A DNA stretch of 64,000 bases from Felixounavirus LF110P4, in sequence record OZ035790.1, one strand, 5' to 3'. Position 1 is the first letter of the stretch. Each line of letters starts with the position of its first letter. The notes under the pieces were generated by a model. That model searched no databases and had not been told where the DNA came from. It saw only the letters and a list, made by a program, of their open reading frames with translations. The position numbers and the translations under genes were made by a program. This document shows positions 26,205-30,569 of this stretch, piece after piece.

Positions 26205-26504
26205 TTAATCTGCCAACCTTAAATTGAAATTAACACCAAATTTTTCACATACTTCCAACATATACTCAAGGGAGACGTTACCAGTGAGATGGATTATGTT
26301 GGATACACGAGCCTGAGAGATACCACAAATTTTAGCAACTTGCTCTTGAGAAAGACCTCTGGATTTAATCTCTCTCTTAAAACGATGTGCAACGAAGTCT
26401 CTCATTTCGTCTACATCCATTGGACAAATATAACTCTCCATTTCAGCCTCTCTATCAGCCTCCCAATCATCTTGTGGGGCATAAGGGTCAAAAACCTCAT
26501 TCAT
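26205..26504 (-). CDS. XRE-type helix-turn-helix protein
   Basis: HTH-like segment GLSQEQVAKICGISQARVSNIIH; likely ATG at 26504 with ggaag RBS (track ORF extends to 26534). Confidence 0.5.
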   Translation of the reverse strand: MNEVFDPYAPQDDWEADREAEMESYICPMDVDEMRDFVAHRFKREIKSRGLSQEQVAKICGISQARVSNIIHLTGNVSLEYMLEVCEKFGVNFNLRLAD

Positions 26505-26709
26505 CTTTCTTCTTCCGTTTGCGTGAAGTGTCAATTAATGAATCTATGTTTGTAGCCCTAACCTTTTCACGTTCATCGTTAAGATAATCATCAAGAGCCT
26601 TTTCAATCTGTGAATCATCTTGACAGATGACTGTAAAGACTGTAAAGCCGTCTGTATCGTCAATTATCTTACCATAACCGCTTCTGGGATGTAACTTTTT
26701 AAGAGCCAT
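26497..26709 (-). CDS. hypothetical protein
   Basis: 70 aa ORF with basic C-terminus. Confidence 0.35.
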   Translation of the reverse strand: MALKKLHPRSGYGKIIDDTDGFTVFTVICQDDSQIEKALDDYLNDEREKVRATNIDSLIDTSRKRKKKDE

Positions 26710-26710
26710 A

Positions 26711-27094
26711 TCAGATACCTGTGCAGCTTCTGTTTTCTAAGAAATACTCAACACCATACATGGCTTTTTGCATCAAATCTTCTTTAAACTGAATACGATG
26801 ATTGAGCATAGTTTGTACATCAATATCGTCATGGTGTTTCTCTTTAATATTTGCAGATTGTAGGAAATACTCTGCAAGAACACGATACTGATAGTCAGTT
26901 ACCTTATCAGTCATCTCTGTTAAAGACTCTTCAGAGATTGGTTTCAGTAGCTCACCATTAGCTAGAGCAACACCTTTTACAATCTGGCAAGTATCTTCTG
27001 GAACACCTGACAAGTCCACATTTGGGAGTTCTGTTGCATTGACTGGTAAATTCATTGCCATAACCATTGCAGCAGCTAATAAAATCTTTTTCAT
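26711..27094 (-). CDS. secreted (periplasmic) protein of unknown function
   Basis: 127 aa; N-terminal Sec signal peptide MKKILLAAAMVMAMNLPVNA; has its own promoter. Confidence 0.55.
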   Translation of the reverse strand: MKKILLAAAMVMAMNLPVNATELPNVDLSGVPEDTCQIVKGVALANGELLKPISEESLTEMTDKVTDYQYRVLAEYFLQSANIKEKHHDDIDVQTMLNHRIQFKEDLMQKAMYGVEYFLENRSCTGI

Positions 27095-27132
27095 AATGAC
27101 CTCAAAGTTATATTAAATTTTGTATTACATTG

Positions 27133-27167
27133 AGTATAAAAATAAGCTATAACACCTGACTTGTCAA
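27133..27167 (-). promoter_or_regulatory. sigma70-like promoter (TTGACA-17-TATTTT, TATACT further downstream)
   Basis: minus-strand ttgaca at 27167-27162, ~40 nt upstream of the 27094 start codon. Confidence 0.45.
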
Positions 27168-27189
27168 CAGATTTTATAGCTTATTTGGC

Positions 27190-27592
27190 AGATTTTTTAT
27201 AAGGCTACTGCCATCCTTCCATACCCTACCTTACCACACCTAACCATACCTAACCAAACTACACCATACAATACCTTATTAAAAGACCCTCTTAAAGACC
27301 TTTTAAAAAGGTAAGTCTCATTTTAATGTAGCTCCGATTAACTACCCACACCTTACCTCACCTGACCTGACCTGACCCTACCTAGCATTACCGTGCCACA
27401 CCTCACTTAAAAACCCTCTTAGAAGACTCTTAAGTGATGTAATCGGATTTTAATGTAGCTCCGATTAACTACCCGCACTTTACCAAACCTCACCCTACCC
27501 TACCAGACCTTACCTAACCGCGCCGTACCTCATTAAAAGACCCTCTTAAAGACCTTTTAAAAAGGAGCCTCCGAAGAGGCTACCTAGTCAAC
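27190..27592. repeat. composite non-coding repeat region A (NNACC pentamer tracts, conserved hairpins, 33-nt and 37-nt direct repeats)
   Basis: no ORF; exact 33-nt repeat at 27279-27311 and 27533-27565; 37-nt block 27403-27439 recurs at 28969-29005; pentamer tracts 27211-27276, 27344-27402, 27471-27531. Confidence 0.8.
27560..27587 (-). terminator. intrinsic terminator after the 27593 gene
   Basis: minus-strand agcctc-ttcg-gaggct hairpin followed by TTTTT. Confidence 0.6.
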
Positions 27593-28033
27593 TTAGAAAG
27601 GTTTTCTACGTTGCTTGTTAATGTTAGCTTTCATAGCAGCTAAATGGTTTTGCTGTTCAATTAGTCGTGAACGTTCTTGATGGCTAAGTACCATAGTGTT
27701 CACATTCTCAATCGCTTGAGTGGCTTGCTTTAAAGCACGACCAATCTTACCAGACATTTTACGTTTTGCAATAGTTGCTTGATGCTTAGGTTCAACCACA
27801 CGATAACCAACACCCATTGAAGCAACCAGATAAATCTTCTCTTCTTTAAGAAGCTTCTCAATAAACTTCTCAAGTCGATTTAAGCGTGTAAGCGCATAAG
27901 CCTTCATTTCATCTTCGTACTTAACAATGTCACCTTGATAAGTTGGCTTCACAATACCTAAGAAGGTGTCCATCTCAGAATGTGATACAGTGTCACCGTA
28001 ACTAAACTTTGCTGCTAATGCTTTTGTATTCAT
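27593..28033 (-). CDS. hypothetical protein (repeat-flanked cassette gene 2)
   Basis: 146 aa, basic C-terminus; start is 2 nt from upstream stop. Confidence 0.5.
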   Translation of the reverse strand: MNTKALAAKFSYGDTVSHSEMDTFLGIVKPTYQGDIVKYEDEMKAYALTRLNRLEKFIEKLLKEEKIYLVASMGVGYRVVEPKHQATIAKRKMSGKIGRALKQATQAIENVNTMVLSHQERSRLIEQQNHLAAMKANINKQRRKPF

Positions 28034-28035
28034 AA

Positions 28036-28641
<606 letters not shown>

Positions 28642-28654
28642 TTAGTTGATTGTT

Positions 28655-29005
28655 AAGTTGTTTGTAAAGAACCCTCAATAGAAGACTCTTTAGAAACTTG
28701 GTAGATTTTTAACGTGGCTACTACCATCCACCCACACTTTGCCATACCTCACCGCGCCTTACCCGACCTGGCTGCACCTTGCCTTGCCAAACATCACTTA
28801 AAAACCCTATGAGATACCCTATCGAGTATAATTTAAAGGCTCTTAAGTGATGTAAGTCTCATTTTAATGTAGCTGAGACTAACTACCCATACCCTACTTT
28901 ACCTTGCCGTACCGTACTTTACCCGACCACACCGGACAATACTTAACCCTACCTCACCCGACCGGACATCACTTAAAAACCCTCTTAGAAGACTCTTAAG
29001 TGATG
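28655..29005. repeat. composite non-coding repeat region B (NNACC pentamer tracts plus hairpins with 10-bp arms)
   Basis: hairpins with catcacttaa / ttaagtgatg arms at 28792-28852 and 28967-29005; stem-loop 28855-28880; pentamer tracts 28724-28790 and 28884-28966. Confidence 0.8.
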
Positions 29006-29035
29006 CTGGTGAGTACCCGTTGGTCTATGCTGTTC

Positions 29036-29063
29036 AGTATACTCACCAAATTTTCTATGTCAA
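29036..29063 (-). promoter_or_regulatory. sigma70-like promoter (TTGACA-16-TATACT) driving the repeat-containing leader and cassette
   Basis: minus-strand ttgaca (29063-29058) and tatact (29041-29036), immediately downstream of the ligase stop. Confidence 0.45.
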
Positions 29064-29069
29064 CAACTT

Positions 29070-30173
29070 TTATTCATAATCTCGTATAATGAGACCAACA
29101 GGGAACTGTAAAGAACCCTTACGAGTCATCTTCTGGAACTGAACCGTTAAAGGTTTCCCGATAAACTCTTCAGGATGCTCAGCAAGATACTGTTTCTTCT
29201 CATGAGTAGTCTTCCATGAGACATCTACAAAGACGTTAGGAAGAGTCTCTACAACGAACTTACCATGACCACGTTTATCAGTCTTTACACCAGTAACTTT
29301 AAACTCTTCAGTGTGCATCTTCTTGTGCTTAATCAAGAAGTATGAACGGTGGCCACACTCATAGAAAGATTCTTCAGAGATTGAACGGTACATTGCACCT
29401 TCAAACTTAGCTTCAACCCACTTATCATGAGCTTCATCAAATTCTTCCCAAGAATTTACACGACGAGACTTAACAGGAATAACTTTACAGCCATCTCTGA
29501 AGTCATTCAATGGTGAAGTCTCAATAATATCTCTACGCTCAGGCCACGTCTTAGTGCTGTCACAGATATCGTACCAGTAAAACTTGAGTAAATGTCGGTC
29601 AGGATTGTCTTCATTTTTAATCATGGAGACAATATCTTCTAAGTCCAACCCGTGAGCATAGATTTCACCATCAAATTCATCAACGTCTTTATGGAGCCTC
29701 AACATTGCCATAATGTCAGGTATTAGCTCAGTAGGAATTTTATAAATAGTGTTCTCACGAGAATATGCTGTAAATACGCTGCCAATACTTAAGTGTCTTG
29801 AAATTCTACAACGGACACCATCAAGTTTTGGTTGAGCATCAGCAGGGAACTTCAGATACTTTGCATGGCTAACCTTTGCAGCATCATGAGCAAGCTGTAC
29901 ACCTACCTTCTCAGTATTCTGTGCAGACTCTTTTGTGTAAGAATAACCTTTGCGGTCAACTTGCTTTTTATACTTAGCAGCAACTTCAAAGAGGGCTTGC
30001 TGTTCAGTGTTACGCTCATTCTTTTTACCGATGTTTTTAGGTTCTGCTGTATACTCTTCAAACATCATCTTGCCATTTTCTTTACCGTAGGTTGTAATAA
30101 CTTTGTCACCTACAGCAACGCATGACCAGACGTTGAAGGAACCGTCTTTATTTTGTTTGTACAGAATTGTCAT
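29070..30173 (-). CDS. ATP-dependent DNA ligase
   Basis: adenylation motif KLDGVR; ATG at 30173 with gaggt RBS (track ORF extends to 30209). Confidence 0.85.
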   Translation of the reverse strand: MTILYKQNKDGSFNVWSCVAVGDKVITTYGKENGKMMFEEYTAEPKNIGKKNERNTEQQALFEVAAKYKKQVDRKGYSYTKESAQNTEKVGVQLAHDAAKVSHAKYLKFPADAQPKLDGVRCRISRHLSIGSVFTAYSRENTIYKIPTELIPDIMAMLRLHKDVDEFDGEIYAHGLDLEDIVSMIKNEDNPDRHLLKFYWYDICDSTKTWPERRDIIETSPLNDFRDGCKVIPVKSRRVNSWEEFDEAHDKWVEAKFEGAMYRSISEESFYECGHRSYFLIKHKKMHTEEFKVTGVKTDKRGHGKFVVETLPNVFVDVSWKTTHEKKQYLAEHPEEFIGKPLTVQFQKMTRKGSLQFPVGLIIRDYE

Positions 30174-30366
30174 TTTTAACCTCTGAGTGATACCAAGTGT
30201 CACAAGCATTACATGCGTAAAGCTCTAAGTCGTTTTTATCTGGTTTATGGAAACAGTTTGACCCACAACGACACCGGAATAACTTACCATCAACACGAAG
30301 AATGAATGTTTCAAGCTCACCATCTTCTGTAAGAACTGCGTTCTTAAATTTATCTTCTACAGTCAT
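30148..30366 (-). CDS. small zinc-ribbon protein
   Basis: 72 aa with CRCGSNC ... CNACD cysteine pairs. Confidence 0.4.
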   Translation of the reverse strand: MTVEDKFKNAVLTEDGELETFILRVDGKLFRCRCGSNCFHKPDKNDLELYACNACDTWYHSEVKNDNSVQTK

Positions 30367-30569
30367 TTTCTCTTACCACCAATCTCTACGTCAATAACTT
30401 GAACATCACCAGCAACATCAAACTTATGAATGATGCTTTCCACAGTGTAAGTCCAACCATCAATGCGAACCAACTCACCTTCTCGTGGAACTATTGGATT
30501 ACGTTGAGCTACGGTTGTAGTGGAGTGAACAACATCATAACAGTAGATATAGTTTACTAGAACTTCCAT
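30363..30569 (-). CDS. hypothetical protein
   Basis: track ORF 30363..30668 trimmed to internal ATG to avoid 89-nt overlap with the lipoprotein gene. Confidence 0.35.
   Translation of the reverse strand: MEVLVNYIYCYDVVHSTTTVAQRNPIVPREGELVRIDGWTYTVESIIHKFDVAGDVQVIDVEIGGKRK

Follow-up and report, generated by a model that had tools for sequence, protein, structure and literature searches.

The repeat region upstream of vipr in Felixounavirus LF110P4, a very probable guide-RNA array of a type II VIPR system

Introduction

VIPR (Viral Interference Programmable Repeat) is a CRISPR-like system of RNA-guided DNA silencing that was first described in two 2026 preprints (bioRxiv 10.64898/2026.04.26.720920, 10.64898/2026.04.26.720927), the source for the published VIPR systems throughout this text. 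As described there, the components are a phage-encoded minimal RAMP protein of ~20 kDa, Vipr, with an RRM core, a G-loop, and a thumb; an accessory protein, Vap; and guide RNAs called vrRNAs. A vrRNA consists of 9-16 YNNGG repeats and an invariant structured tail, which in the SUSP1 clade contains a pseudoknot. This work concerns Felixounavirus LF110P4 (record OZ035790.1), of which a stretch of 64,000 nucleotides (the window) was analyzed. Within it, region 28655-29066 (region B), which lies upstream of a gene starting at 28623, very probably carries two guide-RNA genes that form the upstream array of a SUSP1-clade type II VIPR system. A first-pass annotation had read the same region as an unusually long, structured 5' leader with, at its promoter, an inverted repeat that would fit an operator or attenuator.

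The best studied VIPR system is that of phage SUSP1. The cryo-electron microscopy (cryo-EM) structure reveals that one Vipr protomer per repeat sequesters GGY and presents NN, the two variable bases. These NN bases pair with double-stranded DNA such that every third target base is skipped, and binding represses transcription. The SUSP1 vrRNAs appear in small-RNA sequencing (sRNA-seq) as ~100-nt RNAs and copurify with Vipr, and repression has been documented by green fluorescent protein (GFP) and plaque assays. The reference locus has one vrRNA upstream and three downstream of the operon formed by vipr and a second gene, vap1; the vrRNA that was studied, vrRNA1, has 12 repeats, and vrRNA1 and vipr function together in a construct that has one promoter upstream of both. 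Most SUSP1-clade guides are aimed at a satellite element found in E. coli genomes. VIPR has been proposed to be older than CRISPR (bioRxiv 10.64898/2026.04.26.720920, 10.64898/2026.04.26.720927).

According to the same preprints, VIPR shares several properties with the CRISPR RNAs (crRNAs) and the RAMP protein Cas7 of Class 1 CRISPR systems: a variable guide is capped by a structured handle, the target is recognized by RNA guidance, RAMP protomers polymerize along the guide, and bases are flipped periodically. Unlike Class 1 CRISPR, however, the VIPR period is 5 nt with three sequestered bases rather than 6 nt with one, every third target base is skipped, which makes reading non-contiguous, and the system belongs to a lytic phage, which directs it against a satellite. 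The LF110P4 locus likewise differs from Class 1 CRISPR, having no repeat-spacer array and neither cas1/cas2 nor other cas genes.

The vipr-vap1 operon of LF110P4

The window derives from a Felixounavirus-like myovirus, and 259 phage records match segment 27000-30300, most of them with 90-95% identity. Region B falls within the interval 28624-29069, between a DNA ligase gene, whose stop codon is at 29070, and the start codon at 28623, and the local genes around it are all on the minus strand. The vipr locus as a whole sits between ligase and polymerase genes, in a slot that extends from the DNA ligase gene to a 127-aa gene.

The product of the 28623 gene is 97% identical to SUSP1 Vipr over its full length and matches the PDB entry 36pp, "SUSP1 Vipr protein", with E = 1.5e-127. 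In the preprints, contacts to G1, G2, and Y3 of each repeat are assigned to H17, D177, R138, W178, E71, M72, R179, C173, and T175 (bioRxiv 10.64898/2026.04.26.720920, 10.64898/2026.04.26.720927). H17, E71, M72, R138, C173, D177, W178, and R179 are present in the LF110P4 protein, which is the same as SUSP1 Vipr at all nine GGY-contact positions. The second product, Vap1, is 99% identical to its SUSP1 homologue, and a Pfam search with it returned no domain. The Vipr protein is 95-100% identical in 116 phage records, compared with the mostly 90-95% DNA identity of the surrounding 3.3 kb. Conservation above that of its flanks suggests that the cassette (27593-28623) has been exchanged or swept among Felixounaviruses.

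Besides orthologous proteins, LF110P4 and SUSP1 share the genomic slot, the upstream promoter P1 and the 8-bp inverted repeat at it, the H2 hairpin, the tail types, the vipr 5' untranslated region (5' UTR), the operon terminator, a downstream array of three vrRNAs, and guides against the same family of E. coli satellites. They differ in that SUSP1 has a single vrRNA upstream of vipr while LF110P4 has two, with 16 and 12 repeats; the extra unit is joined through a longer hairpin, H2', that carries a 22-nt insertion. In addition, LF110P4 has another guide repertoire, one chimeric downstream tail, and a backbone that is Felixounavirus-like rather than that of a Suspvirus. Features of the locus are collected in Table 1.

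Table 1. Coordinates of the features of the vipr locus within the window, in the direction of minus-strand transcription
Feature	Position	Strand	Description
P1 promoter	29036..29063	minus	TTGACA-16-TATACT; consensus scan 11/12; ranks first among promoter-like sites in 26500-30500
8-bp inverted repeat over the -10 element of P1	29045-29038 / 29013-29006	minus	GGTGAGTA/TACTCACC
H2 hairpin, directly 5' of vrRNA-B1	28967..29005	minus	18-bp stem, 3-nt loop, four G·U pairs
vrRNA-B1 guide	28887..28966	minus	(YNNGG)x16; NN: CC CG GA AG TA AT CC GT CG AA AC AC AA AA AG AT
vrRNA-B1 3' tail	28853..28886	minus	pseudoknot GTAG (28886-28883)/CTAC (28872-28869); hairpin GTCTCA (28879-28874)/TGAGAC (28861-28856)
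H2' hairpin, directly 5' of vrRNA-B2	28792..28852	minus	H2 arms plus 22-nt insertion forming its own small hairpin
vrRNA-B2 guide	28732..28791	minus	(YNNGG)x12; NN: TT AA AA GC CA CG AA GC GA AT AA GT
vrRNA-B2 3' tail	28699..28731	minus	pseudoknot GTGG/CCAC; hairpin TGGTAG (28726-28721)/CTACCA (28704-28699)
vipr 5' UTR, short	28624..28698	minus	Shine-Dalgarno GGAG; weak promoter-like site 28668-28639, 9/12
vipr	28036..28623	minus	195 aa, minimal RAMP protein
vap1	27593..28033	minus	146 aa, VIPR accessory protein
Intrinsic terminator of the vipr-vap1 operon	27559..27581	minus	GC-rich hairpin followed by T run
Downstream array of three vrRNAs	27186..27532	minus	region A, 11-12 repeats each
vrRNA-A1	tract 27532-27473, tail 27472-27440	minus	
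H2 hairpin of region A, between A1 and A2	27439-27401	minus	
vrRNA-A2	tract 27400-27346, tail 27345-27312	minus	tail stem chimeric, non-pairing
vrRNA-A3	tract 27278-27219, tail 27218-27186	minus	
19-bp inverted repeat around the -35 of P2 (27167-27139), then T-rich run	27140..27186	minus	

The guide tracts

Region B and the intergenic region downstream of the operon (region A, 27095-27592) are both built from one composite unit: a 5' element, a pentamer tract, and a conserved 3' stem-loop. The conserved 5' element is either the long hairpin H2 or a CCTTTTTAAAAGG...TAAGAGGGTCTTTTAA variant, and the tract comprises 11-16 pentamers of the form Y-N-N-G-G on the minus strand. In the whole 64-kb window, CC/ACC tracts with a period of 5 occur in just five places, all within 27203-27547 and 28732-28976. 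Two of these had been noted by the first-pass annotation as pentamer-periodic tracts; they are real, and correspond to the guide segments of vrRNA-B1 and vrRNA-B2. On the sense strand, the tracts have a skew of G over C of +0.5 to +1.0.

The tracts are conserved in their frame and variable in their content. Among 80 unique related tracts, Y occupies position 1 and G positions 4-5 (the tract detection rule biases the tally at the Y and G positions), and NN is near-random. The NN bases are wholly different between phages that have near-identical flanks, and GGY is fixed. The region A units lie after the operon terminator (27581-27559) and before P2 (27167-27139), the promoter of the next gene. 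The best candidate for an internal σ70 promoter of these downstream vrRNAs is TTAAAA-N17-TTTAAT/C, which does not have the conserved A2 or T6 of a -10 element and was not adopted. An Rfam scan of 26900-29300 at E <= 10 returned three sub-threshold chance matches only.

Tracts of this kind are also found elsewhere. A scan of IMG/VR for exact (GGTNN)x6-GGT detects them in >120 unrelated viral contigs, as tandem arrays with short conserved spacers. Several of the contigs (L039:4500-5100, L049:2200-3150, L046:10750-11800, L038, L034, L086) have tandem arrays in which from 7 to >10 hypervariable (GGTNN)n tracts alternate with short spacers of perfect conservation; these presumably belong to other, putative VIPR types. 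A gene of ~200 aa is flanked by the units of L046, and the L039 array is closed by a strong terminator hairpin.

Targets in the E. coli satellite

The satellite was located through its baseplate protein, stated in the preprints as 72% identical to SUSP1 YP_009199407 (bioRxiv 10.64898/2026.04.26.720920, 10.64898/2026.04.26.720927). It is present in 474 of 5,426 complete E. coli genomes, and seven copies were retrieved. The element is ~12 kb long, with serine recombinases at its flanks, and its tape-measure and baseplate genes have relatives in the phage. Target searches replaced each GGY by one wildcard (skip 1).

Under this rule, all five guides of the window match the same satellite family. 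For vrRNA-B1, the best target agrees at 29/32 NN positions and lies in a hypothetical gene in the satellite of E. coli O157:H7 E32511 (L183:9001-9047). The best target of vrRNA-B2 agrees at 22/24 positions, the mismatches being confined to the two outermost bases, and lies in a gene for a helix-turn-helix (HTH)-domain protein in the satellite of E. coli O22:H8 RM10809-3 (L182:9000-9034). Both targets are in frame, so that the skipped base is the wobble position of the codon. The downstream guides A1, A2, and A3 match at 21/24, 22/24, and 20/24. The A3 target (L154:9782-9816) covers the -10 region of a TTGACA-N17-TAGTAT promoter before the first operon gene of the satellite, a position that fits transcriptional silencing.

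These matches are backed by controls. Shuffling the NN order 200 times per guide and searching the first five satellite loci gave maxima of 23/32 for B1 and 19/24 for B2. When 76 unique related tracts were compared with five satellite loci at a threshold of at least 80% NN, the numbers of matches at skips 0, 1, 2, and 3 were 0, 44, 0, and 1. No self-target is present in the 64-kb window, where the best matches are 20/32 (B1) and 17/24 (B2), at most 71%. A first BLAST with an "ideal target" for B1 retrieved nothing better than its own source locus; a composite ideal later succeeded. BLAST of region A against the 5,426 E. coli genomes gave no match, which means that similarity to the tails does not lead to the satellites.

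The satellite of E. coli D10 carries an 11-repeat vrRNA of its own (L154:8245-8299, minus strand), with a tail of the GTGG/CCAC type and an extra covarying stem, GTCG/CGAC. Neither vipr nor vap is present in the five satellite copies tested (L153-L157), and so this vrRNA must borrow the Vipr of the helper phage.

Structure of the vrRNA tails and the H2 hairpins

The first-pass annotation had described a covarying stem-loop at 28855-28880. The stem-loop is real, covaries in related copies, and constitutes the tail of vrRNA-B1; the tail of vrRNA-B2 is of the type present in the experimentally studied SUSP1 vrRNA1. Among 23 unique tails that were parsed, the hairpin stem occurs in four fully complementary Watson-Crick sequences, in a G·U variant (11 copies), and in a compensated variant. 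In the same set, the 4-bp pseudoknot, which joins the last repeats with the loop, occurs in three complementary versions, GTAG/CTAC, GTGG/CCAC, and AAGG/CCTT. The chimeric tail of vrRNA-A2 looks like a recombination junction between units, and this guide may be defective.

Two hairpins with perfect 10-bp arms had also been described, with catcacttaa/ttaagtgatg at 28792-28801/28843-28852 and 28967-28976/28996-29005. These arms are present and exceed chance: region B contains three perfect 10-bp inverted-repeat pairs, and 0.04 are expected in shuffles. The hairpins are genuine and longer than the stated 10 bp: in the fold of the minus-strand RNA, G·U pairs lengthen the stems to 17-18 bp. H2 folds at -17.5 kcal/mol (z = -6.3), and its 3' arm continues straight into the first repeats of the tract. 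H2' forms 17 bp at -27 kcal/mol (z = -8.7), and the 61-nt H2' variant is present in three related units as well. An alignment fold of 14 H2 variants yields 16 consensus pairs, among them four invariant G·U/U·G pairs, and one compensatory pair (CG to UA x4); several one-sided changes preserve pairing. Because G·U pairs in the tails and in H2 would become A·C mismatches on the opposite strand, these structures belong to minus-strand RNA.

The 22-nt insertion of H2' carries, in the loop (28820-28835, minus strand), the sequence TTTAAATTATACT, which includes the same -10 hexamer as P1, TATACT, with no convincing -35. This site could be a candidate weak internal promoter for vrRNA-B2.

Transcription of the locus

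The P1 promoter, which the first-pass annotation had placed at 29063-29036, ~410 nt upstream of the ATG, is confirmed as TTGACA-16-TATACT (11/12) and ranks first in a 4-kb scan. With a 22-nt probe and <=4 substitutions, P1 is found in 30 of 31 related loci, including SUSP1, and it carries a promoter annotation in AYO145A. On the minus strand, there is no terminator-like site in 28624-29036. Since there is no intervening terminator and SUSP1 shares both the promoter and the layout, P1 very likely transcribes region B ahead of vipr, and it is the probable promoter of vrRNA-B1, vrRNA-B2, and the vipr-vap1 operon. The long transcript that had been proposed is therefore likely; what does not hold is its role as a regulatory leader. 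The record of phage ASO1B annotates the weak site at 28668-28639 as a promoter with 3 mismatches.

An 8-bp inverted repeat does span the -10 of P1, as the first-pass annotation had noted in proposing an operator or attenuator. A repeat of this kind arises in ~23% of shuffles and its RNA fold is no better than shuffles (z = -0.95), so that it is statistically indistinguishable from chance. Its arms are identical in 11 related loci and SUSP1, which gives no covariation either way. The operator or attenuator role is thus unsupported.

The 19-bp inverted repeat at P2 has arms that are 17/19 complementary and an RNA fold with an energy of -17.8 kcal/mol (z = -6.1), and it is conserved in all relatives. 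It is a putative terminator of the downstream vrRNA array, overlapping the promoter of the next gene. It could have a double role, as array terminator and as operator of P2.

Relatives with and without vipr

A comparison of 31 related loci groups them by the distance between P1 and P2. At ~200 bp there is one unit and there are no genes between the promoters; at ~330-380 bp there are two units; and at ~1600-1900 bp the units flank the two-gene cassette. Across these loci, there is almost no variation in promoters, hairpins, or tails. Felix O1 belongs to the ~200-bp class, and its single tract is visibly degenerate (L004:2323-2604). In some relatives, such as phage tootiki (L002:3436-4733), the DNA ligase is annotated as two coding sequences, and genes for HNH homing endonucleases are scattered between the ligase and polymerase genes of relatives, the ordinary mosaicism of this phage group.

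Vipr is found in 117 of the 259 phage records, and roughly half of the Felixounaviruses are without vipr and vap. In the phages that have neither gene, one or two units remain between P1 and P2 (L004 (Felix O1), L005, L006, L008, L010, L014, L015, L020, L023, L024, L028), and eight near-complete IMG/VR genomes (~84-88 kb) keep vrRNA units with no vipr anywhere. When 15 such orphan guides are compared with the E. coli satellite, seven reach >=80% NN. One of these (L010, 92%) is not shared with any vipr-positive phage sampled; most satellite-matching orphan guides share long NN runs with guides of vipr-positive phages. Given these shared runs, the orphan units are most simply explained by a recent deletion in which the flanking arrays recombined. 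That the orphan arrays are functional, either through Vipr borrowed in trans from a co-infecting phage or as decoys that titrate the Vipr of a competitor, appears rather improbable. The retention of vrRNA units in Felixounaviruses that lack vipr may be a new point.

Weighing the alternatives

Region B is read here as guide-RNA genes and not as a leader because equivalent units stand after the terminator, because units occur in genomes without vipr, and because the NN positions carry information. Several points weigh against this reading. The transcription start, the 5' and 3' ends of the vrRNAs, and their co-transcription with vipr are, for this phage, predictions. The three downstream vrRNAs are located past the operon terminator at 27581-27559. 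No perfect (100%) natural target was found, and the exact full-length B1 and B2 patterns have 0 matches in IMG/VR. The vrRNA-A2 tail (27312-27345, minus strand) combines a 5' arm of the ATCGGA type with a 3' arm of the TGAGAC type, and this stem cannot pair. Residue 175 is V in the LF110P4 protein and in the SUSP1 genome translation, compared with the T175 named in the companion preprint. Finally, the role assigned to the H2 stems, in processing (as an RNase III-like substrate that defines the vrRNA ends) or in 5' stabilization, is putative.

In the reading offered by the first-pass annotation, region B is a cis-regulatory 5' leader: the 28623 gene would be controlled by attenuation at the hairpins, or by a protein- or RNA-responsive switch that they form, together with an operator supplied by the repeat over the -10. 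The ~410 nt between P1 and the ATG with no terminator in between, the strong RNA hairpins, and the overlap of an inverted repeat with the -10 all agree with it. A leader role is impossible, however, past the operon terminator, where identical units are found, and units persist in genomes that have no vipr to control. The region offers no alternative terminator/antiterminator pairing and no T run after the hairpins, the tract is hypervariable except for GGY and matches satellite genes, and the 8-bp repeat is within chance expectation. A regulatory leader is thus very unlikely. The repeats might instead be a DNA-level element that has no RNA function, serving as recombination substrates that mobilize or delete the cassette or as iterons of a replication origin within the replication-gene module. 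Neither the four invariant G·U pairs of H2 nor the G·U variants of the tails make sense except as minus-strand RNA, the NN strings match the satellite specifically at skip 1, and the orthologous SUSP1 vrRNAs are, according to the preprints, detected by sRNA-seq and copurify with Vipr. What speaks for a DNA element is the presence of the cassette in only about half of the Felixounaviruses, with junctions inside repeat units, the recombination between units seen in the chimeric vrRNA-A2 tail, and the location between ligase and polymerase genes; but the units seem to recombine as a consequence of being repetitive, and an element of this kind is still less probable than the leader.

Least credible of all is a structural or sponge RNA or DNA outside VIPR, whether a G-rich transcript forming a G-quadruplex or R-loop, a TRAP-like (GGUNN)n protein-binding site, an antisense rut site, or a T7-like primase-site cluster. 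The G over C skew and the strict 5-nt periodicity would suit such elements, but the binding of one Vipr protomer per GGY repeat accounts for all these features, and none of the elements predicts in-frame skip-1 matches of NN to satellite genes. An origin with a G-quadruplex or R-loop, decoys for BREX or PAM recognition, geminivirus-like iterons with a nick hairpin, and nut/boxA-like antitermination were dropped as well, since Vipr binding and skip-1 targeting explain the data. A CRISPR array, which would have identical direct repeats of 23-50 bp between unique spacers, was rejected: the conserved parts (tail and H2) are of several types, and the variable parts are GGY-periodic. No Cas domains are present in the neighbor genes checked (26205-30209 block). 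A type III toxin-antitoxin system (ToxIN-like) was also rejected, as the 195-aa protein has no Pfam match to the ToxN family, the repeats are 5-nt periodic and variable where identical antitoxin RNA repeats of ~36 nt would be expected, and there is no terminator between them and the gene.

Other repeat-containing RNAs and cassettes

The RNA bound by TRAP in the trp leaders of Bacillus contains ~11 or more (G/U)AG triplets separated by spacers of 2-3 nt, with one triplet bound per protomer of the oligomeric protein. It is a true cis-acting attenuator leader whose spacers carry no information. The vrRNAs resemble it in having conserved triplets that are separated by two variable nucleotides and are bound one per protomer. 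Unlike in TRAP RNA, however, the spacers of the vrRNAs are the information, the RNA acts in trans on DNA, and the proteins are not homologous.

A second likeness is with the promoter-early stem-loop (PeSL) cassettes of T4-type phages, in which PeSL elements flank accessory genes; these elements have no GGY/NN tracts and no guide function. In both cases, repeated promoter/stem-loop units surround an accessory cassette that is variably present in close relatives, with junctions in the repeats. In LF110P4 and its relatives, as opposed to the PeSL cassettes, the gain and loss of the cassette looks like a by-product of the repeated vrRNA units.

Proposed mechanism and significance

In the mechanism proposed for LF110P4, P1 would give rise to a minus-strand precursor composed of H2, vrRNA-B1, H2', and vrRNA-B2, followed by the coding sequences of vipr and vap1. 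The vrRNAs would be released as RNAs of ~100 nt, as found by sRNA-seq for SUSP1, with the H2 stems putatively involved in processing or stabilization. Vipr protomers would then bind one per repeat, sequestering GGY and presenting NN as in the cryo-EM structure with the SUSP1 protein, and the NN string would pair with double-stranded DNA, skipping every third target base, to form a complex that represses transcription as the SUSP1 complex does. Loading, DNA binding, and repression in LF110P4 are thus presumed by analogy, from experiments on the 97-99% identical SUSP1 system. The guides, by the matches computed here, would be aimed at genes and a promoter of the ~12-kb satellite in E. coli chromosomes, and silencing would be directed at a parasite of the phage.

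The 2026 preprints already describe this system, as well as its architecture in the phage lineage and the satellite targets. The present analysis identifies what had been called composite repeat regions as guide-RNA genes of a VIPR system; the attenuator, operator, or leader reading of them does not stand, given the same units after the operon terminator and in vipr-less relatives, and NN bases that are hypervariable and match satellite genes. It also indicates that cues in the sequence by itself, namely GGY tracts of period 5, tail hairpins that covary, and a promoter far upstream, are able to flag VIPR loci. The window adds natural guide-target pairs, B1 with the hypothetical gene of the O157:H7 satellite, B2 with the HTH-domain gene, and A3 with a promoter -10, and the 1-nt-skip rule has been re-derived independently on a different data set. 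The analysis further supports H2 as a long hairpin conserved in the RNA, and shows that relatives without vipr, including Felix O1, keep vrRNA units.

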